Shown piece by piece: positions 98 to 12,448 of a stretch of DNA of 12,448 nucleotides; the stretch's first letter is position 1; each line of letters opens with the position of its first letter. This DNA is from Cyanobacteriota bacterium. GTDB lineage: Bacteria > Cyanobacteriota > Cyanobacteriia > Cyanobacteriales > Geitlerinemataceae. Below the pieces are notes generated by a model. The model was not told where the DNA came from and ran no database searches. It was given only the letters and a program-made list of their open reading frames with translations. Made by a program: the position numbers and the translations under genes. The stretch covers positions 28,278 to 40,725 of the forward strand of contig JAXHUC010000042.1 of NCBI GenBank assembly GCA_034189805.1, given 5' to 3'.

Positions 98-517
98 CTA
101 GTAAATTCCGTTGTTGAGACGATCTCCGCCACTGTTAAACACGTTGGCCACGGGGGTGACAGTAAAGTTATCGAGGTTGGCTTGCAGCCGAGCTTTTTGC
201 CGCTCGCTCAATCCATCGATGTTCAACACATCCTCAACCTTTTCGTAGGGTGCGTTATCTACCACTTTTCCCGCGAGAGTGGGATACATGCCGCGATACT
301 TACGAAAAGCTCGGACGTTGGTGTTATTGAGATCGATCTTCTTACCGAAATCCGTTCCTAGCTTCTTATCGGCGGCATTTTGCGCGGAGAATTCTGCTAA
401 AACGGGCAGGGGACGAACGCTCAGATCGGCAGCCAGCGCTCTTTGCGGCAGCGCCAACATCCCCAAGCAGCTTAGTAACACGCAAACCGCCGTCAACAAG
501 CGAACCAATCGTTTCAT
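98..517 (-). CDS. psbU: Photosystem II 12 kDa extrinsic protein PsbU (precursor with lumenal signal peptide)
   Basis: 139-aa ORF with an N-terminal hydrophobic signal peptide ([23 protein letters not shown]). The mature part carries the PsbU signature [68 protein letters not shown] Shine-Dalgarno sits 8 nt upstream of the ATG. Confidence 0.93.
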
Positions 518-640: not shown

Positions 641-1624
641 TCAATTGTCCGGGGGTAGGAAAGCTGCAATATCGGCAAAGTTTCCGGCATAAGTGGGCAT
701 GGGGCGATCGTACCCTTTCAGGTGAACTTCACGGGCTTCGAGGGCACTCAGATCGAGCTTTGTCGCTTCTAGATATTGGTAGGTCGTTTGACCGAGGGCC
801 ACTTCTTTACCCAACTTCTTGGTACAGGACTCCAGACGGAACGCAGCGTTGACGGTATCGCCCAATGCGGTGTAATCCGGACGATCGCCGCTACCGGTGT
901 TGCCGACCATGGCGTATCCGGTATTCACCCCAGCCCCGATGCGCAACGGGAAGGGGAGGGGATAGCGATCGCTCAATTTCTGCGTCATCTTCTGGAGGTT
1001 GCTCAGGGCTTGACAAATCTGCACCCCTTCTTTAGCCGTGACGCGATCTTGAGGGTGAAACCAAACGGCCATAATCGCATCGCCGATATACTTATCTACC
1101 CAACTGCCGGAGATGCGGATAATTTCTCCAGACTGGCGGAACCAAGTGCCGATTAATTCTGAGAGGATGGCTTCGTCGAGTTGGCGGGTGAGGACGGTGA
1201 AATCGCGGATATCGATGACCATCACCGAAATCAAACGACGGATGGACAACAAGGCGGTTGCCGTTGCCGAGTCGTCGCCCTCGAACTCTTCGCTATCTTC
1301 TGGCAGGGGGCGAAGGGGACAGAAAAAATCGAGCTGAGTTTGACCGAGGGTGAGGCGATCGCCATTTTTGAGGGTGACGGGAATGCTGACCCGCCGTCCG
1401 TTAACGAAAGTGCCGTTGCGACTGCCGAGATCGATTAGGTAATAGTCGCCACCATCCGTGCATTGGAGCATCGAATGATTGCGCGAAATCCACCGATCTC
1501 GGACGACAAAGTTGTTATCGTCATTACGGCCGATCGTCCAACATTTGTAGCCTTCTAAGGACAGATAGCGGTCGCCCGAGTCAGTGCGCAGAACTAGGTG
1601 GGGAGAGGATTCGATCGTTATCAC
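641..1624 (-). CDS. FHA domain-containing class III adenylate/guanylate cyclase (probably adenylate)
   Basis: 327-aa ORF with a GTG start at 1624. The N-terminal FHA motif is WTIGRNDDNNFVVRDRWISRNHSML...YYLIDLGSRNGTFVNGRRV. The C-terminal class III cyclase motifs are VMVIDIRDFT (metal Asp), DKYIGDAIMAVW (Lys plus metal Asp) and GVNTG..GNTGS....YTALGDTVNAAFRLES. Confidence 0.9.
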   Translation of the reverse strand: MITIESSPHLVLRTDSGDRYLSLEGYKCWTIGRNDDNNFVVRDRWISRNHSMLQCTDGGDYYLIDLGSRNGTFVNGRRVSIPVTLKNGDRLTLGQTQLDFFCPLRPLPEDSEEFEGDDSATATALLSIRRLISVMVIDIRDFTVLTRQLDEAILSELIGTWFRQSGEIIRISGSWVDKYIGDAIMAVWFHPQDRVTAKEGVQICQALSNLQKMTQKLSDRYPLPFPLRIGAGVNTGYAMVGNTGSGDRPDYTALGDTVNAAFRLESCTKKLGKEVALGQTTYQYLEATKLDLSALEAREVHLKGYDRPMPTYAGNFADIAAFLPPDN

Positions 1625-1887: not shown

Positions 1888-2622
1888 TTACCCGACCGCA
1901 GATAGAGCTGCCAGCCAAAAGAGAGCATCTACCAATATCGTACTCAAAACCGCCCCAGAAAACGCCCAATAGTGAAGGCGAGGGTTCGGACTGCCTAAAG
2001 GTAGGAGACCTCCCAACAGGAGAGCGGTTGCCAGAATTGCCGCCCAGAGAATTCCCCAAGGGGTACGGACTTGAGCGATCGCCTCTTGAAAAATCGGCAC
2101 CACCAGTTCCGGTTCGACCCGCATCAACTCTCGCCAACTCGGCATTAAATCGACGAGATAGAAATAGCCGTCGGTGAGGGCCGTGCCAAAGAAAGAACCG
2201 AGTGCAAACCAGCTACCGACTAACAATCGACCGCGACACAGGCACCAAATCGGCAGGGGAAGGGCAATTGCTTCGACGGGTAAGTGCCATAATGGTTCCC
2301 ATCGCAACCATCCCCAATATAGGGAACCGGCCAACCAACTGCCTGCAAAGCCCAGGAGCAGGTCGCCCCAGAACGCAGTAGAACGCCGTAATAGCAACGC
2401 CACGCTCGCTCCCACCCATCCCAAGGTTAGAGCTAAACTAACCCCAGGCAGGTGACGGACTAAAGGTGCTTCGATAAAGACGGGGACGGCCACTAAAAAG
2501 ACGGAGACCGCAAAAATGAGTCCGGATTTTCTCAGCTCGAGGCCCCGCCAGGAAAGGACGAGAGAGTCTCGCTCGGCATCAATGGGGTAAGGTGCAGAGT
2601 TGCTAAAAGGAAAGTAAAACAA
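1888..2622 (-). CDS. Conserved cyanobacterial polytopic membrane protein (resembles the DUF3120 family)
   Basis: 244-aa ORF with about 6-7 hydrophobic segments and a Trp-rich pattern (LRKSGLIFAVSVFLVAVPVFIEAPLVRHLP, WGWLRWEPLWHLPVEAIALP). The only available start is TTG at 2622, so the start is uncertain. The family name is recalled from motifs, not searched. Confidence 0.65.
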   Translation of the reverse strand: MFYFPFSNSAPYPIDAERDSLVLSWRGLELRKSGLIFAVSVFLVAVPVFIEAPLVRHLPGVSLALTLGWVGASVALLLRRSTAFWGDLLLGFAGSWLAGSLYWGWLRWEPLWHLPVEAIALPLPIWCLCRGRLLVGSWFALGSFFGTALTDGYFYLVDLMPSWRELMRVEPELVVPIFQEAIAQVRTPWGILWAAILATALLLGGLLPLGSPNPRLHYWAFSGAVLSTILVDALFWLAALSAVG

Positions 2623-3018: not shown

Positions 3019-3993
3019 ATGATTGTATCGTTCCGTAAACTGTTGCCGTTTTGCGCCCTGAGTAGCGTGGGAGCGATCGGCGCTTTAACCCTTGACGCGA
3101 CGGCTACCCCAGAACCGATTGCCACTGCCGATACCGTTTCCGAGGCGATCGCCTGGACTCCTAACGTGTTCCAAGCCATTATTCTAGGGATGGTGCAGGG
3201 ACTGACGGAATTTTTACCCATCAGCAGTACCGCTCATTTAAAAGTGGTTCCCGAAGTGTTGCAATGGGGCGATCCGGGGGTCGCGTTTACCGCCGTCATC
3301 CAACTGGGGAGTATCGCCGCCGTGTTGTCCTACTTCTGGGAGGATTTGGTGCAAGTGACCACGGGAAGCATCAAAGCGATTTCGACCTCGGACTATCAAT
3401 CCCAAGATTTCCGCATTGCCCTGGGGATTGCCTTGGGAACCTTTCCCATCCTGATAATTGGTTTGCTGGTTAAATTTGTTTTTGCCGACTTTTACGAAAC
3501 CCACGTCCGCACCCTGTTCGTGATTGCGATCGTGTCGATCGTTATGGGTATTTTGCTCGGAGTCGCCGAACGGCTTTGTTCGCACAAGCGAGATTTTGAC
3601 AGCCTCACCATGTCCGACGGGATTTTGATGGGTTGCGCCCAAGCCCTCGCCCTAATTCCGGGGGTGTCTCGTTCCGGTTCGACGATTACGGCAGGTTTAT
3701 TTATGGGGTTAGATCGGGCGACGGCCGCTCGATTTTCCTTCCTGCTGGGGATTCCGGCGATTACCCTGGCGGGGTTGGTAGAGATGAAAAGCGCCCTGGG
3801 GGATGGTGGCGAGGTGTCTTGGTTGCCGTTGCTGGCGGGGTTGATTTCGGCGGCAGTTTTCTCTTATTTAGCGATCGCCTGGTTGATTAAGTTCCTGCAA
3901 ACGCAAAGCACTTGGGTATTCGTTTGGTATCGAGTGGCGTTTGGGATTGTCATTTTAGGGGCGATCGCAGCGGGAGTGTTGCAGAACGGATAG
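3019..3993 (+). CDS. uppP: Undecaprenyl-diphosphate phosphatase (UppP/BacA)
   Basis: 324-aa ORF with the UppP signatures GLTEFLPISSTAHL and PGVSRSGSTITAGL, and multiple TM helices. The ATG at 3019 gives a signal-like N-terminal extension of about 49 aa. An in-frame GTG at 3166 would give a canonical-length protein starting (M)FQAIILGMVQGLTEF. Confidence 0.92.
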   Translation: MIVSFRKLLPFCALSSVGAIGALTLDATATPEPIATADTVSEAIAWTPNVFQAIILGMVQGLTEFLPISSTAHLKVVPEVLQWGDPGVAFTAVIQLGSIAAVLSYFWEDLVQVTTGSIKAISTSDYQSQDFRIALGIALGTFPILIIGLLVKFVFADFYETHVRTLFVIAIVSIVMGILLGVAERLCSHKRDFDSLTMSDGILMGCAQALALIPGVSRSGSTITAGLFMGLDRATAARFSFLLGIPAITLAGLVEMKSALGDGGEVSWLPLLAGLISAAVFSYLAIAWLIKFLQTQSTWVFVWYRVAFGIVILGAIAAGVLQNG

Positions 3994-4046: not shown

Positions 4047-4289
4047 TTATGCCCGATCGTCGCCATCGTCAGTCTCGAACAAATCCGTGGCTTTGCTACC
4101 CAACAAGCCAAATACCGCACCGATTCCCATTTGCCACGTCGCCGTGCAGTTCTCGAAGACGCGGATTTGCTGGGGGGAGAGTTCGGCTTTCGATGCCAGC
4201 CAGAGTGAGGTTCCCCCGGAAAGCAGGGTAATGCTAACGACGGTGAAGAAAACTTGTTGAAATGCGGGAGGAAGGTTTACGTTATTCAT
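4047..4289 (-). CDS. Small hypothetical membrane protein (two predicted TM helices)
   Basis: 80-aa ORF. A canonical AAGGAG Shine-Dalgarno lies about 8 nt upstream of the ATG (minus strand: AAGGAGCCACCATCATG). Two hydrophobic segments are present (VFFTVVSITLLSGGTSLWLA, WQMGIGAVFGLLG). No recognisable family. Confidence 0.6.
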   Translation of the reverse strand: MNNVNLPPAFQQVFFTVVSITLLSGGTSLWLASKAELSPQQIRVFENCTATWQMGIGAVFGLLGSKATDLFETDDGDDRA

Positions 4290-4446
4290 GATGGTGGCTC
4301 CTTAAAAATTGAGTTGAGAAGGATAGAGAAAACGATTCGATCGCTGTAATTTGGGGTTGGCTTTGGGGTGAGAATCGTTCCTCTTATCGATAGTTACAGT
4401 GTGACTTAGCCATCGCTAGGAGTCAGCATTTGCAAGGCTTTTGGAA

Positions 4447-4479
4447 TGTATGACTTGTGAGTGAGTTGTGTATGAGTTG
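4447..4479 (+). promoter_or_regulatory. Three tandem 11-bp units (TGNNTGASTTG) just upstream of the HTH-ATPase start; candidate operator or 5' leader element
   Basis: The units are tgtatgacttg (4447-4457), tgagtgagttg (4458-4468) and tgtatgagttg (4469-4479). The outer two are 10/11 identical and the array ends 17 nt before the ATG at 4497. Any function is inferred only. Confidence 0.2.
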
Positions 4480-4496
4480 GAGAAAATCACCCCAAA

Positions 4497-5711
4497 ATGC
4501 GATCGCTTGTTGCCTCCCCCAATGGAATTGAAACCGCTAAAATTGCCCTGACGGGTGAACAGTGGACGCAGGAAAAACTTGCCGAACACGTAGAAGTCGA
4601 TCGGCAGACGGTTAACAAGTTTTTCAATCAGAAGCCTGTCAAAAGTCAGATTTTCGTCGAGATTTGTAATACTCTCGGTTTGAATTGGCAAGAGATTGCA
4701 GTTGCCACAACATCAAAACGCCAACCCACTCAACCGGCACCATCGGGTAATACCAACCCCTTCACCGACGGCACACCTGCACCGCCCGATCGCTTCTACG
4801 GCAGGCGAGACGCAATTTTAGAAGTCAAAAGCCGGATTGGAGGAATTAGCCCCCAGTGCATCAATATTGTGGGGCATCGGCGGGTGGGGAAAACCTCGCT
4901 ACTGCGCTACATTCGCGATCGCACGATCGAATTTTGTCCGGAGTCGCAGCAGCCACTAATTGTTTCCCTAGATTTGCAAGATAATAAGTTTCATACCCCG
5001 GAAGGGATTTTGGAGGGATTGCGGCGCGGCATTGGCAAGCTAACGGGAACTGAACCTTGGCAACGGCAGGAAGACGACGACGGGTTTGCGGTGGAGGATG
5101 GATTGCAGGCGATCGCAGATGATGGATATCGGGCGATCGTCATGTTAGATGAATTTGAGGCGATCGCGAGGCGGTTGGTGGAATTCGAGGATTGGGGAGA
5201 AGATTGGCGATCGAAAGCCTCTGCGGGGTTGCTAACGATGGTTATTGCCAGCAAGCGTCCTCTAGCGGAACTCTATCAAACCCTACATCTGACATCGCCC
5301 TTCGATAATATCTTTAGTACCACGATTTTGGGGGCATTAGCGACGGAGGATTGGCAGCGTTTGGTACGCGATGGGTTTGGCGGTGAGGTGGGAACCTCGG
5401 AACTCGCTTGGATTGACGAGTTAGCCGGAGGGATTCCGTTTTACGTGCAGATGGCGGCATCGATGTTGTGGCAATACGGGGATTTGGCGAAGGCAGAGGC
5501 GGAATTTGTGTTTCAATCCCGATCGCATTTCCAGAAGCTTTGGCAGGAGTTGAGAGAACCGGAACGGATTGCGATAAAAAGGGTGATTCGCGGCGAAACG
5601 GTGGAGTCGAAGGTGATGCTAAATCTCCTCCAACGTTACGGAATCTTGCGAGAAGACAGTCGTTTATTTAGCCGCGTTTTTGCCGAGTTTGTGGCGGAAG
5701 AATGTCGGTAA
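4497..5711 (+). CDS. HTH domain + P-loop NTPase (STAND-like / ATPase_2 (Arch_ATPase)-type AAA ATPase) with C-terminal winged-helix-like region
   Basis: 404-aa ORF. The N-terminal XRE-like HTH is WTQEKLAEHVEVDRQTVNKFFNQKPVKSQIFVEICNTLGLNWQEI, a module common at N-termini of cyanobacterial STAND proteins. Walker A is GHRRVGKT (4872-4895) preceded by FYGRR, and Walker B is IVMLDE (5136-5153). The downstream GGIPFYVQ and C-terminal LLQRYGILRE motifs align with the C-terminal half of the 7413-10097 protein. Confidence 0.85.
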   Translation: MRSLVASPNGIETAKIALTGEQWTQEKLAEHVEVDRQTVNKFFNQKPVKSQIFVEICNTLGLNWQEIAVATTSKRQPTQPAPSGNTNPFTDGTPAPPDRFYGRRDAILEVKSRIGGISPQCINIVGHRRVGKTSLLRYIRDRTIEFCPESQQPLIVSLDLQDNKFHTPEGILEGLRRGIGKLTGTEPWQRQEDDDGFAVEDGLQAIADDGYRAIVMLDEFEAIARRLVEFEDWGEDWRSKASAGLLTMVIASKRPLAELYQTLHLTSPFDNIFSTTILGALATEDWQRLVRDGFGGEVGTSELAWIDELAGGIPFYVQMAASMLWQYGDLAKAEAEFVFQSRSHFQKLWQELREPERIAIKRVIRGETVESKVMLNLLQRYGILREDSRLFSRVFAEFVAEECR

Positions 5712-5789
5712 ATTTCGGGAAGATTCGATATAGTAATTTTAAACGGTTTGTTGTCAGTATTCAGCGATCGGGCAAGCGCGAAAGAATCT

Positions 5790-5855
5790 GTAAGGGCGGG
5801 TTTGGATAGATTCGATCGAACTTGCTGAGGATTTTCACACAAAACCCGCCCCTAC
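5790..5855. repeat. Imperfect 14-bp inverted repeat (GTAAGGGCGGGTTT ... AAACCCGCCCCTAC); MITE-like or palindromic-element candidate
   Basis: The arms at 5790-5803 and 5842-5855 match 13/14 as reverse complements, with a 38-nt loop. The GGGGCGGGTTT/AAACCCGCCCC arm type resembles short dispersed hairpin repeats I recall from filamentous cyanobacterial genomes. There is no U tract, so it is not a classical terminator. Confidence 0.4.
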
Positions 5856-5935
5856 CCATTGTGACCCTAGCAGGATCTAAAATCTCGCTCTGAATCTTTA
5901 CAGTTCGTTTTCCCTAGGTTATTTGTTAAAAAATT

Positions 5936-6655
5936 ATGGTTCTCAGCAATCCCCCCAATGCGGTAATATTTCCCCCAAGCGACCTCGAAAGTGACGAACC
6001 TCCCTTGGAAACCGATCGCCATCTGCAACAAATTATCCTCCTTTTAACCTGTCTGCAATGGTGGTGGCAGGAACGTCCCGATGCACCGGAATCTCGCCGC
6101 AATAACTTCTATGCTGCCGGAAATATGACGGTATATTACAGCAGCCGCCAGCTACGGAACGAAAAGTTTCGCGGGCCGGATTTTTTCGTAGTATTAGATA
6201 CGGAATATAAGGAACGCAAAAGTTGGGTGGTGTGGGAAGAAGATGGCAAATATCCTAATGTCATTATTGAAATGCTGTCGGATTCGACGGCGGAAATGGA
6301 TCGGGGGAAGAAAAAAGATATCTATCAAGACAGCTTTCGCACGCCGGAATACTTTTGGTTCGATCCTTATACTTTAGAGTTTAAAGGCTTTCGATTTTTT
6401 GGGAAATATGAAGAGATCGCACCAACGGAACGGGGCTGGTTGTGGAGTCAGGAATTAGATTTATATCTGGGAATTGTGGATGAGAAATTACGGTTTCTGA
6501 CACCGCAAGGGGAAGTGGTTCCCACGCCATTGGAGGCGGCAAAGCGGGAACTTCAGCGAACGGAGTTAGAACGGCAGCGTGCAGAGGCAGCGGAGGCAGA
6601 GTTAGAACGATTGCGTCAGCAGATTCGCGAACGGGGAATCGATTTAGATTCGTGA
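5936..6655 (+). CDS. Uma2 family (DUF820) PD-(D/E)xK endonuclease with C-terminal coiled-coil tail, copy 1
   Basis: 239-aa ORF. The Uma2 pattern is GPDFFVVLD...YPNVIIEMLSDSTAEMDRGKKKDIYQDSFRTPEYFWFDP. The C-terminal tail is charged and helical (ELERQRAEAAEAELERLRQQIRERGIDLD). It is paralogous to 10307-11068. Confidence 0.9.
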   Translation: MVLSNPPNAVIFPPSDLESDEPPLETDRHLQQIILLLTCLQWWWQERPDAPESRRNNFYAAGNMTVYYSSRQLRNEKFRGPDFFVVLDTEYKERKSWVVWEEDGKYPNVIIEMLSDSTAEMDRGKKKDIYQDSFRTPEYFWFDPYTLEFKGFRFFGKYEEIAPTERGWLWSQELDLYLGIVDEKLRFLTPQGEVVPTPLEAAKRELQRTELERQRAEAAEAELERLRQQIRERGIDLDS

Positions 6656-6706
6656 TGTTTTTTTGATTTTGGGTGCTGTAGGAGCAAAGCATTTTAGCGA
6701 AAAATC

Positions 6707-7396
6707 ATGTTTGTTACCCAGATATCAAAATCGAAATGGTTGCTCAAATTCTTAACCCCTACAGAGTCGAATAATATGTCCTACAGTCAGTTCGATTTAC
6801 AGACGGCTTTAACTCAATTTAAACTCAGCTTAATTGAAGAATCTTTTCTCTCGAAAGTTGTTCCTGTCAAACCGAGTGAATGGCTGGCAACTTCTCTCGA
6901 TATTGGATTAAACTGGGCGATCGATAACAATACGGAAAAGGCGAGGGCGGAGGCGATAATCACACCGATTTTAATCGAGATTAAGACGAAACTACTGAAG
7001 GGGAATGTTTCTCTATTTTCTGGGAAAGATTTTTCCGTGGATGCTGCGTTGGGATTGAACGGACTTTGCGACTATATTATCAGCTTGTCGCCAAATCAAT
7101 TGTTGATTACTGCCCCGGTTGCGGTTGTTTTTGAAGCGAAACGAGAGGATATTAATAGTGGATTCGGACAATGTATTGCGGCGATGGTTGCCGCGCAAAA
7201 GTTTAACCAACAGTATCAACAAGAAATTGAGACAATTTACGGGGCGGTAACAACAGGCGATCGCTGGCGATTTTTGAAATTGGAAAATCAGATTGTAACC
7301 ATTGATATTGCAGAAGTTCGCATTCCTCCGGTGAATCATCTGTTGGGGATTTTAGTGGCGATTTCGAGTCCTGAGATGACTTGGCAAAATAAGTAG
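6707..7396 (+). CDS. Hypothetical PD-(D/E)xK nuclease-fold protein (HsdR_N-like restriction endonuclease-like domain)
   Basis: 229-aa ORF. An alternative start at ATG 6776 (MSYSQF...) is plausible. The motif order is EKARAEAIITPILIEI ... CDYIIS (Asp) ... VAVVFEAKRED (E-x-K) ... GQCIAAMVAAQKF (Gln), as in HsdR N-terminal-type PD-(D/E)xK domains. The stop at 7396 lies only 16 nt before the next gene start. Confidence 0.7.
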   Translation: MFVTQISKSKWLLKFLTPTESNNMSYSQFDLQTALTQFKLSLIEESFLSKVVPVKPSEWLATSLDIGLNWAIDNNTEKARAEAIITPILIEIKTKLLKGNVSLFSGKDFSVDAALGLNGLCDYIISLSPNQLLITAPVAVVFEAKREDINSGFGQCIAAMVAAQKFNQQYQQEIETIYGAVTTGDRWRFLKLENQIVTIDIAEVRIPPVNHLLGILVAISSPEMTWQNK

Positions 7397-7412
7397 AAGT
7401 TAGATATAGAAA

Positions 7413-10097
7413 ATGCGTCGTTTTCTTCGCGAAACTTGGGAAATGTGGTACTGGGCGATGTTTTGTCCGTCTAAGCTTCAGCAGCGGATGAATGAATGGT
7501 CGCCGAAACAAAAAAAAGGCGGACACAGACCTGATACAGCTTTTAACGATATTCTTCTATCTAATTTTAACTTTCGTTTTTTTTGTCAATATTTTTGTAT
7601 TTTAATTGTTCTGAGTCTACCTCTGCTCTTCATTATCTGGAGTAACAGCCGGGGGATAGATGGGTGGCTTTTGCCGATGGTTCTGATGACTGCCTATGGG
7701 GCGGGCATTTGGTTTCTACCCATCAGTTTTGCCGTGCCGGGATTGTTTACATTGGTGTATTGGCAACAGCCAGAAGCCTGGATTGAAGGATTTAGGGATG
7801 GCTTCAGCGATGGCTTGGAGGACTTACCGCCATTGACTTCGATCGGTCAAGGATTTGCGGTGTTGGCATTGCTGTGGCTGCTGACGCTGATTATCGGTCG
7901 ATGGCTGTTGGGGAAAAATCATCTGTCTGTGGGGCAAAACTTTATCATCATTGGCGGAATTTTCAGTACTTTTGCAGGGAGTTGGTGGGGTAGCCACAAT
8001 TGGATATTTGCTTTATTGGTGGGTGGACTCACTGGCTTCTTTCTAGTTGCGAATCGCGATGAAATTACGGCTGAAAATTTGCAACAGTCTCGTGGCAATC
8101 TTGTTGAAGATGTGGCTTATGGCGTGGCGGTCGGCGTGGCGGTCGGCGTGGCGGTCGGCGTGGCGTTCGGCGTGGCAACACTTCCCCTGGCTATACTATT
8201 ACTCGCCAGTTGGTTTGCCGCGTGGAGTTTATCCCCCGTTCGCCGGTTTGGACTGATTACATCGGGAGTCTTTGCCGCATTGGGGTTTAATCACTTAGGT
8301 TGGCAATGTCTGTGGGCGATTCCCGTGACTCTGGCTGGTTACTATCGCCTATTTCCGGGTTATCTTATCTCCCTGCCAGAGATGCTGATTCCCTCGATTC
8401 CGTTTCTGGGCCGCTTCAATATCGATCCCATACCGCGACTGACTCGACGGCTGCCTCAACTTCCCCCGCACACCAGCGAACTTCTCTGGTTTCCCCTTCC
8501 CAACCACGATCGCATTCTCGCTGCCGCCTTCCAAACCAATCCCTCAGAAGCCCTGAAAACCTTCGAGAAAATGCAAGCCATCGAACTTCCCGGCTTCCAA
8601 ATTACCCTAAAAAATGCCCTGCCCCAAATTATCGCCGATCGCCTTTTTGCCACCCAAACCACCACCGAACTCATCGCCACCGCCAGCCCCAAACATCCCC
8701 TCCTGCCTCTGCTGATTCCCAGCTTCTACAGTTCAAATACCGAACCCCCTCCCGCCAACATCCGCCCGGAAATTTCCATCCTCGTTCCCCGACTCCAATC
8801 CATCGCCGAAGATGTAGAAGCGGCCCTAGAACCGAAAAGTGCGGCCTTGCGGGAACGGGGACTCGATCGCATTCTCAACAATCTTGCCCTCCTGCAAACT
8901 CAACTCCCCGGACTGGGACTCAAACCCAAAGCCAGGGAACGGTGGCAACCCGTCCTCCAACGCTGGCAGCGCGTTATCCAACTGGAACTGGAAACCCAGC
9001 AGCAACAATCCCAAGGGGAACTCCTCAACCCCTTCCTCTACGGCAACCCCCTAAAACGCGATCGCCCGGACATTTTCAGAGGCCGCCAAACCTTCGCCGA
9101 CGAAATCGTCCGCCAAATTCTCGATCGCAACCGTCCCACCCTCGTCCTCCACGGCCCTCGTCGCTGCGGCAAAACCTCTTTTCTCTACAACCTGCCGCGC
9201 CTCCTCCCCAGCGATTTACTGCCGATTTTTGCCGATATGCAAAGTTCGGCCGCCACCCAGGACGACGGATCGTTTTGCTACGCCTTAGTTCGCGCCATTG
9301 TCAAAGACAGTCGCAGCCAGGGGGTGAAATTCCCGGAACTCCCCCCGCGTCAAGAATTTCGCGACAGTCCCTACGCGGCATTGGAAGACTGGTTCGATCG
9401 CGCTTTACCCAAATTGGGCGATCGTCGCCTCCTCCTCAACCTGGATGAATTTGAAAAAATCGGCGCGGCCATACACGCCGGAAAGCTGAGTTTGCAAATT
9501 TTCGACCAACTGCGCCACTTGATCCAACATTACGATGCCTTGGGCTTCCTCTTCTGCGGCGTGCAAACCCTCGACGAACTCGGCCCCAATTGGAGTAGCT
9601 ACTTCATCAGCGTCGTTCCCATGGAAATGCTGTACCTCGAACCCGAGGAAGCCAACCAGTTGCTGGTGAATCCAGACCCCGAGTTCGAGTTACGCTACGA
9701 CACTGGCATCGTCGATACCGTCGTCGCACTCACCCGCAGCCATCCCTACCTGGTGCAACTCATCGGTTCGGCAATGGTGATGGAAGCCAACCAACACCAA
9801 ACTACCCTGATAACTCCAGATTTACTCGAAGCGGCGATCGATCGCGCCCTCACCCTCGGCGAACCTTACTTTACCAACGTCTGGACGGAGTTTACCGGAA
9901 CCACACCGGAAATGGTCGTTGCAGGACAGGCATTATTAAAGGCGATCGCTGAAAACCGCGACATCCCCACTGCCAACCCTGCCTTGCAGCGATTGCTACG
10001 CTACCACATCCTCGAAACTCGGGAAAATGGCAGCTACAATTTTGAAATCCCCTTACTCAAACGTTGGGTGCGAGAACGAGCGATTTTCAACTCATAA
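7413..10097 (+). CDS. Polytopic membrane module (about 8-10 hydrophobic segments, incl. glycine zipper) fused to a STAND-like P-loop ATPase and C-terminal winged-helix-like region
   Basis: 894-aa ORF. The first ~330 aa are rich in TM-like segments (FCILIVLSLPLLFIIW, GFAVLALLWLLTLIIG, WIFALLVGGLTGFFLV, AYGVAVGVAVGVAVGVAFGVATLPLAILLLASWF...). A Pro/Leu-rich linker with a helical stretch follows. The ATPase has NPFLYGNP..FRGR, Walker A GPRRCGKTS (9153-9179), Walker B LLLNLDE (9429-9449), SHPYLVQ and a C-terminal LLRYHILE motif, all collinear with the 4497-5711 protein. Confidence 0.85.
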   Translation: MRRFLRETWEMWYWAMFCPSKLQQRMNEWSPKQKKGGHRPDTAFNDILLSNFNFRFFCQYFCILIVLSLPLLFIIWSNSRGIDGWLLPMVLMTAYGAGIWFLPISFAVPGLFTLVYWQQPEAWIEGFRDGFSDGLEDLPPLTSIGQGFAVLALLWLLTLIIGRWLLGKNHLSVGQNFIIIGGIFSTFAGSWWGSHNWIFALLVGGLTGFFLVANRDEITAENLQQSRGNLVEDVAYGVAVGVAVGVAVGVAFGVATLPLAILLLASWFAAWSLSPVRRFGLITSGVFAALGFNHLGWQCLWAIPVTLAGYYRLFPGYLISLPEMLIPSIPFLGRFNIDPIPRLTRRLPQLPPHTSELLWFPLPNHDRILAAAFQTNPSEALKTFEKMQAIELPGFQITLKNALPQIIADRLFATQTTTELIATASPKHPLLPLLIPSFYSSNTEPPPANIRPEISILVPRLQSIAEDVEAALEPKSAALRERGLDRILNNLALLQTQLPGLGLKPKARERWQPVLQRWQRVIQLELETQQQQSQGELLNPFLYGNPLKRDRPDIFRGRQTFADEIVRQILDRNRPTLVLHGPRRCGKTSFLYNLPRLLPSDLLPIFADMQSSAATQDDGSFCYALVRAIVKDSRSQGVKFPELPPRQEFRDSPYAALEDWFDRALPKLGDRRLLLNLDEFEKIGAAIHAGKLSLQIFDQLRHLIQHYDALGFLFCGVQTLDELGPNWSSYFISVVPMEMLYLEPEEANQLLVNPDPEFELRYDTGIVDTVVALTRSHPYLVQLIGSAMVMEANQHQTTLITPDLLEAAIDRALTLGEPYFTNVWTEFTGTTPEMVVAGQALLKAIAENRDIPTANPALQRLLRYHILETRENGSYNFEIPLLKRWVRERAIFNS
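8121..8177 (+). repeat. In-frame 12-bp tandem repeat (GGCGTGGCGGTC, about 4.75 units) encoding (GVAV)n
   Basis: Three perfect units lie at 8121-8132, 8133-8144 and 8145-8156. A one-mismatch unit follows at 8157-8168 (ggcgtggcgttc) and a partial unit at 8169-8177. The translation is GVAVGVAVGVAVGVAFGVA, with Gly at every fourth residue. Confidence 0.92.
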
Positions 10098-10123
10098 ATC
10101 AATTCGGTTGGATGTATTAGATG

Positions 10124-10179
10124 GCGATAAGATTTACAGGAAACTACGGAGTCGAAATCTATCGTAACGCATCTTTTTT
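10124..10179 (+). terminator. Candidate terminator after the TM-ATPase gene
   Basis: A hairpin pairs 10124-10135 (gcgataagattt) with 10155-10165 (aaatctatcgt). It has 11 bp with one bulge (A10129), one G-U pair and a 19-nt loop. A T6 run follows at 10174-10179, 8 nt after the stem. The stem is AU-rich and the T run is distant, so this is tentative. Confidence 0.3.
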
Positions 10180-10306
10180 ATCGAGTATAATTCATACAGC
10201 GTGGAGTATAAAAAACACCGCTTTTTACTTCACATAAAAATATAAAATTATTCCACTTCATACCCAACAGTACCTCTATTTACTCAACCGAGTCTCAAAT
10301 TAAATT

Positions 10307-11068
10307 ATGGTTCTCAGTCAGTCCCCCAATGCGGTAATATTTCCTCCTAGCGACCTCGAAAGTAACGAACCTCCCTTGGAAAGCGATCGCCATCTTCAAC
10401 AAATTATTCTCCTGTTAACTTGCCTGCAATGGTGGTGGCGGGAACGTCCCGATGCACCGGAATCTCGCCGGAATAACTTCTATGCAGCGGGAAATATGAC
10501 GGTGTATTACAGCAGCCGCCAACTGCGCAACGAACAGTTTCGCGGGCCCGACTTTTTCGTCGTCCTGGATACGGAATACAAAGAACGCAAAAGTTGGGTG
10601 GTGTGGGATGAAGATGGCAAATATCCCAATGTGATTGTGGAAATGCTGTCAGATTCGACCGCAGATATCGATCGAACTCAAAAAAAGCAAATCTATCAAA
10701 ATACCTTTCGCACGCCGGAATACTTTTGGTTCGATCCCTATACTTTAGAATTTAAAGGGTTTCGATTTGTTGGCGCATACGAAGAGATAGCCACAACACA
10801 AGAAGGCTGGTTATGGAGTCAAGAATTAGATTTGTATTTGGGAATAGTGGATGATAAACTGCGGTTTCTGACACCGGAAGGGGAGTTAGTTCCCACGCCA
10901 TCGGAAGCGGCACAGCAGCAACAACAGCAAACAGAAGTCGAACGAGAACGCGCAGAAGCCGAACGAGAACGTGCGGAAGCCGAACGAGAACGCGCCGAAG
11001 CAGCAGAGGCAGAATTAGAACGGTTGCGGCAGCAGATTCAAGAACGGGGCATTAACTTAGATATGTGA
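10307..11068 (+). CDS. Uma2 family (DUF820) PD-(D/E)xK endonuclease with expanded C-terminal coiled-coil tail, copy 2
   Basis: 253-aa ORF collinear with 5936-6655, with the same Uma2 motifs (GPDFFVVLD, VIVEMLSDSTADIDRTQKKQIYQNTFRTPEYFWFDP). The tail carries a QQQQQQ run and a threefold ERERAEA repeat. Confidence 0.9.
   Translation: MVLSQSPNAVIFPPSDLESNEPPLESDRHLQQIILLLTCLQWWWRERPDAPESRRNNFYAAGNMTVYYSSRQLRNEQFRGPDFFVVLDTEYKERKSWVVWDEDGKYPNVIVEMLSDSTADIDRTQKKQIYQNTFRTPEYFWFDPYTLEFKGFRFVGAYEEIATTQEGWLWSQELDLYLGIVDDKLRFLTPEGELVPTPSEAAQQQQQQTEVERERAEAERERAEAERERAEAAEAELERLRQQIQERGINLDM
10940..11002 (+). repeat. In-frame 21-bp tandem repeat x3 (GAACGAGAACGYGCNGAAGCM) encoding ERERAEA x3
   Basis: The units lie at 10940-10960, 10961-10981 and 10982-11002 and differ only at a few mostly synonymous positions. 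The paralog has a single related unit (gaacggcagcgtgcagaggca, 6569-6589). Confidence 0.9.
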
Positions 11069-11455
11069 GAGTTGTAGAATTAAATAATTAAATTTTGCGG
11101 AAATAATCGTATACTGTCGCAAAAGTTAGCCGATCGAGTACGAATTTTTTGCGAAGAGCGAGATATTTAGATACTTTTTTATTTGCAAACTCGATCGAGT
11201 TTTAGTGTCAATACCTAAAATTAAAAAACAACAAAAACATACCCTTATTTTTTCCTTCGAGACAACAGTTTCGTTCTCACGGCGAGTCACGGATCGCTGC
11301 GGAGAGATTCCTAAAAACAATGCCGGAAATGCCACCTCCAGTTGGCGAGAACACCGATCTAGACCCGATCGCAAAACTTCCTAAAATAGTCGTAGGGGAA
11401 CGATGCCAATGCGATCGCCCCAAAATTAACAGAATATCGACTCATTTAAAACCTT

Positions 11456-12448
11456 ATGCAACCGACTAACCCGAATCAATTTACCGAAAAAGCCTGGGAA
11501 GCGATTTCCCGTACTCCCGATATTGCCAAAGCCGCCGGACAACAAAAACTCGAAAGCGAACTTCTGTTCAAAGCACTCTTAGAACAAGAGGGTTTAGCGA
11601 GTAGCATCTTAAATCGGGCGGGGGCATCGGTGCCGAAAATTCGCGATCGCATCGAAGCCTTTATCGCCAAACAACCGAAAATATCTGGCAGTAGTAGTTC
11701 CATCTATTTAGGGCAAAGTTTGGATACGTTGCTCGATCGCGCCGATGCTTATCGAAAAGAATACGACGATGAATATATTTCGATCGAACATCTAATTCTG
11801 GGCTACCTGAAAGACGATCGCTTCGGAAAAAATTTGTTGAGAGAACTTAAAATAAGTGAATCCCAACTCAAAGAAACGATCGCCCAAATACGAGGTACTC
11901 AGAACGTGACCGATCGAGATCCAGAAGGCAAATACGACTCCCTCGAAAAATACGGTCGCGACTTGACCGAAGCCGCGCGCCAGGGGAAACTCGATCCGGT
12001 CATCGGCCGCGACGACGAGATTCGCCGCACGGTACAAATCCTCTCTCGCCGCACCAAAAATAACCCCGTCCTCATGGGCGAACCGGGGGTAGGAAAAACA
12101 GCGATCGCCGAAGGACTCGCCCAGCGGATCGTTAAAGGGGACGTTCCCGAATCCCTGCGCGATCGCACTCTCATCGCCCTGGATATGGGTTCCCTAATTG
12201 CCGGGGCAAAATATCGAGGTGAGTTTGAAGAACGCCTCAAAGCCGTCCTCAAGGAAGTGACCGAATCGGAAGGGCAAATCGTCCTCTTCATCGATGAAAT
12301 CCATACCGTCGTCGGCGCGGGGGCAACCCAAGGGGCGATGGATGCGGGAAATCTGCTCAAACCAATGTTGGCGCGGGGAGAACTCCGGTGTATCGGCGCA
12401 ACTACCCTCGACGAGTACCGCAAGTATATCGAGAAAGATGCGGCATTG
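11456..12448 (+). CDS. clpB: ATP-dependent chaperone ClpB, N-terminal 331 codons (continues beyond the window)
   Basis: This frame is open from ATG 11456 to the window end and is absent from the ORF track because it has no stop. The translation is [48 protein letters not shown]...[72 protein letters not shown]...[15 protein letters not shown]...[31 protein letters not shown]. This is the classic ClpB N-domain plus NBD1 with Walker A and B. Confidence 0.96.

Follow-up and report, generated by a model that had tools for sequence, protein, structure and literature searches.

What is the role of a STAND-type ATPase that is built into a membrane? The question is raised by a stretch of 12,448 nucleotides from a cyanobacterium of the Geitlerinemataceae (assembly GCA_034189805.1, contig JAXHUC010000042.1, positions 28,278 to 40,725; the window in what follows), in which the open reading frame (ORF) 7413..10097 encodes an ATPase of this class preceded by a polytopic membrane module. 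Innate immunity and programmed death in animals, plants, fungi and bacteria have STAND/NLR proteins as their common core, and nearly all such proteins that have been studied are soluble single-chain receptors. An original prediction, made from the letters of the DNA, treated the membrane protein as a stand-alone unit and proposed a killing pore gated by nucleoside triphosphate (NTP), with a membrane-anchored sensor as the alternative. Analysis of related loci showed that the protein is one half of a conserved pair with the product of ORF 4497..5711. The balance of the evidence leans modestly towards the membrane ATPase being the invariant part of a two-gene paired-STAND NTPase system, a subunit embedded in the membrane as sensor or scaffold, which would license an effector carried by its partner through NTP-dependent hetero-oligomerisation. 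The two-ATPase system, which is widespread among filamentous bacteria and occurs chiefly in filamentous cyanobacteria, is probably used for defence or cell death.

The pair consists of the following genes, listed with the active-site motif of the partner:

4497..5711, + strand: partner gene, 404 residues, with an N-terminal Cro/C1-type helix-turn-helix (HTH; about residues 23-66) and a paralogous STAND-type ATPase (Pfam, homologue contexts)
4872..4898, + strand: Walker A motif of the partner, GHRRVGKTS (sequence)
7413..10097, + strand: ORF of the membrane-embedded STAND-type ATPase, 894 residues and a stop codon (about 70 full-length homologues, AlphaFold2)

A word-indexed search returned 207 relatives of the membrane ATPase, about 70 of them full-length (E<1e-140), and a scan of one genome per species gave 80 loci. 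The comparison set comprised 83 loci (L001-L083), and two further loci (L084 and L085) represented distant relatives that combine (GVAx)n arrays with nSTAND1. The full-length homologues are nearly all cyanobacterial and are annotated only as 'AAA family ATPase' or 'hypothetical'. The species scan placed loci in Nostoc, Crocosphaera, Microcoleus, Pseudanabaena, Prochloron and Chamaesiphon, among others; the loci outside the cyanobacteria belong to filamentous Chloroflexota (Oscillochloris, Chloroploca, Viridilinea, Caldilineaceae) and to one myxobacterium. Of 62 assessable loci, 61 have the partner gene upstream of the membrane ATPase and in the same orientation. The two genes are direct neighbours or overlap in 48 of the 61 (gaps of -8 to 109 bp, often a 4-bp overlap) and are separated by 154-2248 bp in 13 locus entries, which amount to 12 distinct loci because L003 and L013 are one contig; these pairing counts (61/62, 48 and 13) take in three loci that were fetched twice. 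The distant relatives in L084 and L085 are likewise paired, and the contig of the closest homologue, P0001, holds only 242 bp upstream and is uninformative on the partner.

The partner in the window is 49-60% identical to the gene directly upstream of the homologues in L001, L002 and L003. It passes the Pfam cut-off for nSTAND2 (27.3 bits; cut-off 24) and gives a weak match to HTH_3. With 29% identity to the ATPase of the membrane protein and a motif common to both, NPFxxGxP..FxGR..GxRRxGK[ST]..LDEFE, the two ATPases are, by sequence, paralogous. Both families retain Walker A and Walker B; among 69 proteins of the membrane ATPase family, Walker A is present in 67 and Walker B in 66.

The second finding that carries the argument is the modularity of the partner, whose ATPase core is constant and whose N-terminus varies across loci. 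Trypsin domains are the commonest type (36 loci), followed by HTH (at least six, the window included), CHAT (at least three), TIR (two) and a Ser/Thr kinase (one). About nine partners were unclassified: some begin right at the ATPase core, and several ORFs are truncated or have a wrong start. Among the PADLOC models, the trypsin domain corresponds to the protease effectors of LmuA (Lamassu), RT-Protease (DRT), Avs1b and HamA (Hachiman), and the kinase domain matches the PD-T4-6 model. Upstream of the trypsin-type partner, 38 loci carry a gene for the pore-forming pro-toxin Trypco1, which gives the order Trypco1, trypsin-fused ATPase and membrane ATPase. The window holds neither a Trypco1/2 (Pepco) gene nor a gene for a trypsin- or caspase-like protease, the N-terminus of its partner being the HTH, and neighbour clustering recovered a conserved third gene in the trypsin-type loci (Trypco1) and none in the HTH-type loci. 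When the core of the window partner (4497..5711) was compared with L001:6380-7963, L003:4184-5752 and L002:6763-8004, it was 59-60% identical to trypsin-type cores versus 49% to another HTH-type core, which indicates that N-terminal modules have been swapped between closely related cores.

An N-terminal partner domain of about 300 residues was seen in five further loci (L019:8124-9050, L044, L045, L061:8077-9030 and L066). It has no Pfam match and a hydrophobic start (MEPITWGWLAATVLSGIVGN...), and it may be a new effector or a membrane-associated module.

In the mechanism proposed for the pair, the polytopic N-terminal module would anchor the membrane ATPase in the cytoplasmic membrane and form the input or scaffold end of the system. 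A membrane-level cue, for which an invader membrane protein, envelope damage or injection are candidates, would relieve autoinhibition, and both active NTPases would join in an NTP-dependent hetero-oligomer that would gather the N-terminal domains of the partner and activate them. Since the partner in the window carries an HTH, the response here would be DNA binding or transcriptional control rather than proteolysis. The membrane-anchored sensor, offered only as the alternative in the original prediction, agrees better with the evidence than the pore, as it is the partner that carries the effector domains. It is also in line with Evans et al. (bioRxiv 2025, PMC12642450), who name 'transmembrane STAND ATPases' as one kind of sensor in Pepco-protease modules, and no description of the membrane ATPase family was found in the literature beyond that one phrase.

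Several observations weigh against this interpretation. Canonical STAND proteins carry the effector at the N-terminus and the sensors at the C-terminus, and by position alone, on this analogy, the membrane module looks like an effector. No recognisable sensor domain was found in either ATPase of the pair, and the role of sensor is therefore assigned by elimination. The HTH output comes without an identified target, and in the window 1.7 kb with two unrelated genes parts the pair, so that co-expression is not assured. The Nostoc loci show conserved, housekeeping-like synteny and no obvious defence island; neighbour clustering recovered Nostoc-specific synteny and antisense shadow ORFs. Lastly, the structural model of the full-length membrane ATPase is least confident at residues 130-250, which include the putative zipper helix.

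The membrane ATPase itself is divided as follows:

7413..7571, + strand: conserved N-terminal region, residues 1-53, amphipathic helices, predicted to be cytoplasmic (alignment, AlphaFold2, charge count)
7572..8345, + strand: polytopic membrane region, residues 54-311, about 10 hydrophobic helices (hydropathy, loop charges, AlphaFold2)
8121..8176, + strand: in-frame 12-nt tandem repeat GGCGTGGCGGTC, 4.7 copies, encoding the GVAV zipper of residues 237-255 (tandem-repeat analysis, 97% matches)
8346..9086, + strand: connector, residues 312-558, predicted to be cytoplasmic (alignment, AlphaFold2 pLDDT >90)
9087..9905, + strand: AAA+/STAND-type NTPase with helical lid, residues 559-831 (Pfam, alignment, Foldseek)
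9153..9179, + strand: Walker A, GPRRCGKTS, residues 581-589 (alignment)
9432..9455, + strand: Walker B, LNLDEFE, with DEFE at residues 678-681 (alignment)
9906..10094, + strand: winged-helix-like C-terminal domain, residues 832-894 (AlphaFold2, alignment)

ORF 7413..10097 is the sole long ORF at its site, and its ATG start matches the N-terminus of more than 30 homologues. A 382-residue ORF in another frame (8300..9448) was rejected as a shadow ORF, being rich in Pro, Arg and Ser and lying wholly within the conserved reading frame. The AlphaFold2 model, built on a 121-sequence alignment, has a mean predicted local distance difference test (pLDDT) score of 88.1 and a predicted TM-score (pTM) of 0.76. 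It places two N-terminal amphipathic helices before about 10 membrane-length helices that reach residue 311, then a Pro-rich connector and a helical linker, an alpha/beta NTPase with its lid, and a helix-helix-hairpin-helix end. This whole architecture is common to the roughly 70 full-length homologues at E<1e-140 and is therefore not a product of chance. Thus, the succession of some 330 polytopic residues, Pro-rich linker, helical segment, P-loop domain and winged-helix-like end that had been read from the sequence was borne out by hydropathy, modelling and alignment. The protein as a whole gave only a weak AAA_22 match in Pfam and none in NCBIfam. Against PADLOC-DB 2.0 its one match, to a GlgB model (E 0.0011), was spurious, and the homologues P0023, P0049, P0080 and P0119 matched none of the defence-system models of that database.

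The N-terminal region carries the motif FLRETWExxYWAMFCPSKLQQRMNEW, with L5, E7, W9, W14, P19, L22 and R25 invariant in the family, and its helices 2-17 and 19-29 are modelled at pLDDT >90. Between residues 54 and 311, Kyte-Doolittle analysis shows strongly hydrophobic stretches, and the model has helices at 54-78, 81-100, 102-118, 141-167, 171-193, 197-213, 230-255, 259-272 and 279-310, which fits the earlier claim of 8-10 hydrophobic segments. A separate model of residues 1-345 is all-helical (pLDDT 85.7). Nine Lys and Arg residues fall within the first 53 positions, the loop 119-140 is acidic, two Arg residues stand at 276-277, and R312 is nearly invariant (at least 90% of sequences). Hydropathy, modelled helices and the placement of Lys and Arg point to a predicted topology with both termini in the cytoplasm and about 10 spans, of which the number and orientation are likewise predictions.

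A relationship of this module to known folds was looked for in several ways. No Pfam or NCBIfam family was matched, even in a separate Pfam scan at E<=5, in which Romo1 (E 0.014, over the zipper) and DUF4064 were sub-threshold compositional matches and were discarded as evidence. A search of the PDB with the single sequence gave no match. Profile matches in the PDB to Dispatched, aquaporin and syntaxin (E>=9e-5) cover low-complexity hydrophobic or helical stretches and were read as compositional; those to Dispatched and aquaporin fall on the Gly/Val/Ala-rich part. Foldseek found no fold in the PDB that matches the model of residues 1-345 (best E 2.1, TM-scores <=0.26). The original prediction had left room for the module being part of a known transporter or enzyme; as no such family was found by Pfam, NCBIfam, PDB profile or Foldseek, its reading of an unusual membrane module stands. 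A search with the module alone recovered 83 representative clusters among 1.84 billion. The match begins within the first 35 or so residues in 80 of the 83, which shows that the module belongs to this architecture, and the other three are short proteins of 200-286 residues. Long matches number 31 (709-1193 residues), 22 of them in the range of 900-1190 residues.

The connector contains a conserved YYR..PDYL motif, the Pro-rich motif LPPxTSELLWxPLPNHD and a helical linker domain (residues 365-533). Its Pro-rich part, residues 330-364, is extended in the model, and a separate Pfam scan of connector and linker (E<=5) yielded only sub-threshold compositional matches. Residues 559-893 are modelled at pLDDT >90. 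In an alignment of 33 family members, the Walker residues G581, R583, R584, G586, K587, S589 and D678-E681 are invariant or nearly so. The best Foldseek match of the NTPase is 2qen of the ATPase_2 family (E 2.5e-7, TMt 0.61), with the NRC4 resistosome, ORC1/Cdc6 and RFC among the further matches; as modelled, the C-terminal half is a STAND/ORC-type AAA+ module. The family sits at the edge of nSTAND1 (PF20703), because the close homologues P0024 (33.0 bits) and P0053 (34.3 bits) exceed the gathering threshold of 27.1 bits, whereas the window protein does not reach it and gives no match at E<=0.01; eight of the 33 members match at E<=1e-3. The C-terminal domain consists of helices 832-846 and 856-863, strands 867-869 and 875-877 and helix 880-893, and bears the family motif RLLRYH...FE[IV]PL..WV. 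The protein ends with this winged helix about 60 residues past the lid, and Pfam shows no family of C-terminal sensor repeats.

The feature on which the pore had been founded is a perfect fourfold GxxxG glycine zipper, GVAVGVAVGVAVGVAFG, of the GVAV type at residues 237-253. The zipper is present as claimed, but it is not conserved as such. It is encoded by the 12-nt tandem repeat listed above, and this repeat region is the hypervariable core of the membrane module. When the corresponding part of the gene was run through Tandem Repeats Finder for 63 related loci, arrays were detected in 50, with periods of 12, 24, 36 or 48 and about 2-28 copies. In the 33-sequence alignment, which includes the window protein, the flanks on either side are conserved, and the segment between helix 6 and the TLPL motif, rich in Val, Ala, Gly and Ile, varies from 36 to 194 residues across the family. 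Glycine at positions i and i+4 is absent in seven of the 33 members. The variable region of the window protein is the second-shortest of those aligned (41 residues), and its closest relative, at 80% identity, has an array of about 95 residues versus about 47 in the window protein. In the distant relatives the N-terminal module consists solely of (GVAx)n arrays, up to about 117 residues long; they align over roughly the C-terminal half of the membrane ATPase, with a coverage of about 42-81%, mostly 48-65%. Read from these comparisons, the perfect zipper is one state of a family-wide in-frame minisatellite and not a conserved channel motif. As far as sequences tell, selection clearly maintains a Gly-rich intramembrane repeat in one form or another across the wider superfamily, and the zipper is proposed to be a length-variable intramembrane helix-packing element.

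The rival explanation that survives best holds that the membrane module, notably the zipper helix, is itself the death effector. NTP-driven oligomerisation would assemble a depolarising pore, comparable to the funnel of coiled-coil domains in plant resistosomes, and the partner would be a co-effector or the sensor. The module does lie in the N-terminal, or effector, position of a STAND protein, GxxxG zippers are typical of the tightly packed helices of oligomeric channels, and the NTPase has the NRC4 resistosome as one of its best fold matches. HTH-type partners and those devoid of an N-terminus offer no obvious killing activity, and because the distant relatives carry only the long (GVAx)n arrays at their N-termini (to about 117 residues), the array would be the ancestral common element. 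Contrary to this, the module is constant while bona fide effector domains interchange on the partner, and the trypsin-type systems already hold a dedicated pore-former, Pepco. A region of 36-194 residues that differs even between relatives 80% identical and lacks i,i+4 Gly in 7 of 33 members is hard to fit to a precise pore, and the other nine or so conserved helices point to a stably folded integral membrane protein. The pore is thus weakened, and is rather unlikely while keeping an appreciable share of the probability.

A more speculative role for the 12-nt minisatellite, which we consider doubtful, is that of a diversifying recognition surface within the membrane, a transmembrane counterpart of the leucine-rich, tetratricopeptide and WD40 repeats of soluble NLRs. 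By this analogy, expansion and contraction of the (G/A)xxx repeat would readjust how helices pack against membrane proteins of foreign origin, for example phage holins, proteins of injection or superinfection, or those of incompatible neighbouring filament cells. Once bound, such a protein would set off assembly with the paralogous ATPase into a hetero-oligomeric 'membrane resistosome', and this would fire the effector of the partner.

The interpretation of the membrane ATPase as the sensor or scaffold of a pair can be set beside five groups of known systems. With the nSTAND1/ATPase_2 STAND NTPases (PF20703, PF01637; PMC8195603) the protein shares a GR motif ahead of Walker A, a Walker B of the form DEFE, the helical lid and the winged helix, and the host range of both is multicellular bacteria. 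Unlike them, it lacks C-terminal sensor repeats and any effector-associated (EAD), Death-like or enzymatic N-terminal domain, and has a family-specific module of about 10 membrane helices and an obligate paralogous partner. A precedent for the pairing is a two-STAND nSTAND2 operon for which a hetero-toroid was proposed (Kaur, Burroughs, Iyer and Aravind, eLife 2021, Fig. 6C, PMC8195603). Both systems are mobile, in both each product is a STAND NTPase of one related family and one subunit bears variable effector modules, and the window partner passes the nSTAND2 threshold. However, one NTPase of the nSTAND2 operon has eroded motifs and it is this inactive subunit that carries GT4 or HEPN effectors, whereas the present system has two intact NTPases and, as its second subunit, a predicted integral membrane protein. 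Neither GT4 nor HEPN occurs among the partner N-termini, where trypsin, CHAT, TIR, kinase and HTH domains were found.

The third group is that of the Pepco (Trypco1/2)-protease modules, such as SsPepco-SsAvs4, in which Pepco was shown experimentally to be a protease-activated beta-barrel pore-former (PMC12642450). They are matched by the 38 related loci with Trypco1, and the system in the window has neither Pepco nor protease. In the characterised SsPepco-SsAvs4, a soluble Avs4 sensor and the protease share one polypeptide; in contrast, the family described here, which is uncharacterised in that study, places protease and membrane module on two separate paralogous ATPases. Bacterial NACHT proteins with transmembrane regions also join a STAND NTPase to transmembrane segments, for which a role in detecting signals from the membrane interior or the periplasm was predicted (Kibby et al., bioRxiv 2022 / Cell 2023). 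Those proteins are of the NACHT clade, were grouped by their C-terminal regions (one category having transmembrane domains) and have no partner NTPase described, whereas the protein in the window belongs to a pair and bears its ten-helix module, minisatellite zipper included, at the N-terminus. As regards glycine-zipper proteins (GxxxGxxxG channel helices, Pfam Gly-zipper families, Romo1), the likeness lies in a Gly at every fourth residue of a hydrophobic helix. There is no significant relationship in sequence or fold, and the zipper here is a copy-number-variable DNA repeat within a larger conserved membrane domain.

STAND proteins with transmembrane segments and paired STAND operons were therefore already known in outline. 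What is unusual is the combination of an obligate pair of active paralogous NTPases, a membrane module without known fold and an in-frame zipper repeat of variable copy number; no description was found of such obligate pairing of two active paralogues, of the fold-novel ten-helix module or of a minisatellite-encoded zipper. Filamentous cyanobacteria of ecological importance, among them Nostoc, Microcoleus and Crocosphaera, carry the system in abundance. A sensor role of the membrane subunit would reveal how events at or within the membrane are linked in bacteria to exchangeable death effectors, the recently characterised Pepco pore among them; an effector role would make the subunit a bacterial equivalent of the resistosome pore. 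Should the repeat be a recognition surface, the protein would be the first immune receptor to detect non-self inside the bilayer, by a transmembrane array of variable repeat length. Whether the membrane subunit is sensor or effector, the pair offers a tractable two- or three-gene system for hetero-oligomeric NLR-like signalling.

In the window, the two members of the pair are parted by an insert:

5936..7396, + strand: lineage-specific two-gene insert between the pair members, ending 16 bp before the ATG of the membrane ATPase
5936..6655, + strand: Uma2-family nuclease gene (Pfam Uma2, E 1e-19)
6707..7396, + strand: PD-(D/E)xK protein, 229 residues (PADLOC CRISPR-associated PD_DExK model, E 3.5e-48; no Pfam or NCBIfam family)

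Using tblastn, no homologue of either inserted gene was found in any of the 83 comparison loci, so that both are ruled out as components of the system and are regarded as an insertion; the tandem repeats of the window include no CRISPR-like array. Other split loci hold different small cassettes in the gap, including MNT/HepT, PIN with a small partner and XisH/XisI-like genes, and such toxin-antitoxin-like cassettes lie between the ATPase genes at L003:6746-7617, L006:8893-9183, L040:5195-6839, L060:8385-9842 and L084:5130-5737. The intergenic gap of the pair seems to be a recurrent landing site for small selfish modules, and the insert in the window fits this pattern. A further gap cassette recurs in Crocosphaera, Symploca and Potamolinea and encodes a protein of about 105 residues together with a retropepsin-like aspartic protease of about 122 residues with a DTGFS motif (L004:9089-9783, L006:9303-9988, L009:9251-9987, L018:9322-10004, and also L003, L040 and L064); it could be an accessory component or a mobile cassette.

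The genes that flank the locus are the following:

98..517, - strand: psbU-like extrinsic protein of photosystem II
641..1624, - strand: adenylate/guanylate cyclase with forkhead-associated (FHA) domain
1888..2622, - strand: DUF3120 protein
3019..3993, + strand: undecaprenyl-diphosphatase (BacA/UppP)
about 11420..12448, + strand: 5' part of clpB, which runs off the window

A 174-residue ORF on the - strand (11899..12423) was set aside as a shadow ORF antisense to clpB. The HIP1 octamer GCGATCGC is found 20 times in the window against 0.4 expected (for example at 4499, 4915, 5109, 5160, 9058 and 9942), and the window is cyanobacterial chromosome. The presence of HIP1 sites within both ATPase genes indicates that the system is well ameliorated to the host genome.

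These surroundings bear on another rival explanation, that the pair performs housekeeping signalling from membrane to genome, with a sensor ATPase for membrane or envelope stress controlling the HTH-ATPase in the manner of the MalT- and AfsR-type STAND regulators. Long residence in the genome, as indicated by the HIP1 sites in both genes, would suit such a role, as would the HTH of the window partner, the vertically inherited Nostoc locus with its conserved synteny and the neighbouring housekeeping genes psbU, uppP and clpB. It is improbable, because most members of the family pair with trypsin and Pepco, CHAT, TIR or defence-type kinase modules, the N-terminal domain of the partner is swapped between closely related cores, and toxin-antitoxin-like cassettes pile up inside the locus. 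The distribution is also patchy and enriched in multicellular bacteria, as in the conflict systems of Kaur et al. (PMC7159879). That the system is instead decaying here, the insertion having uncoupled the pair and left the membrane ATPase as an orphan remnant without its original function, could be read from the 1.7-kb split of a pair adjacent or overlapping in 48 of 61 loci and from the second-shortest variable region of the 33 aligned (41 residues), but it is very improbable, since both ORFs are full-length with every invariant motif intact, 12 other distinct loci are split too (by more than 600 bp in nine of them) with a full-length partner gene in all seven that were checked for its ORF, and the inserted genes share the strand of the pair and stop 16 bp short of the ATG, an arrangement that would permit read-through transcription.

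A scan of 4200..11300 for promoters and terminators gave counts at chance level. A second Uma2-family nuclease gene lies at 10307..11068, and the segments 5931-6230 and 10302-10601, which belong to the two Uma2 genes, are direct repeats with about 90% DNA identity, 4371 bp apart. They flank the PD-(D/E)xK gene and the membrane ATPase, which suggests a recent duplication or gene conversion around the locus. In the second copy, the C-terminal coiled coil is extended by ERERAEA units, which a 21-bp tandem repeat (10932..11001) encodes.

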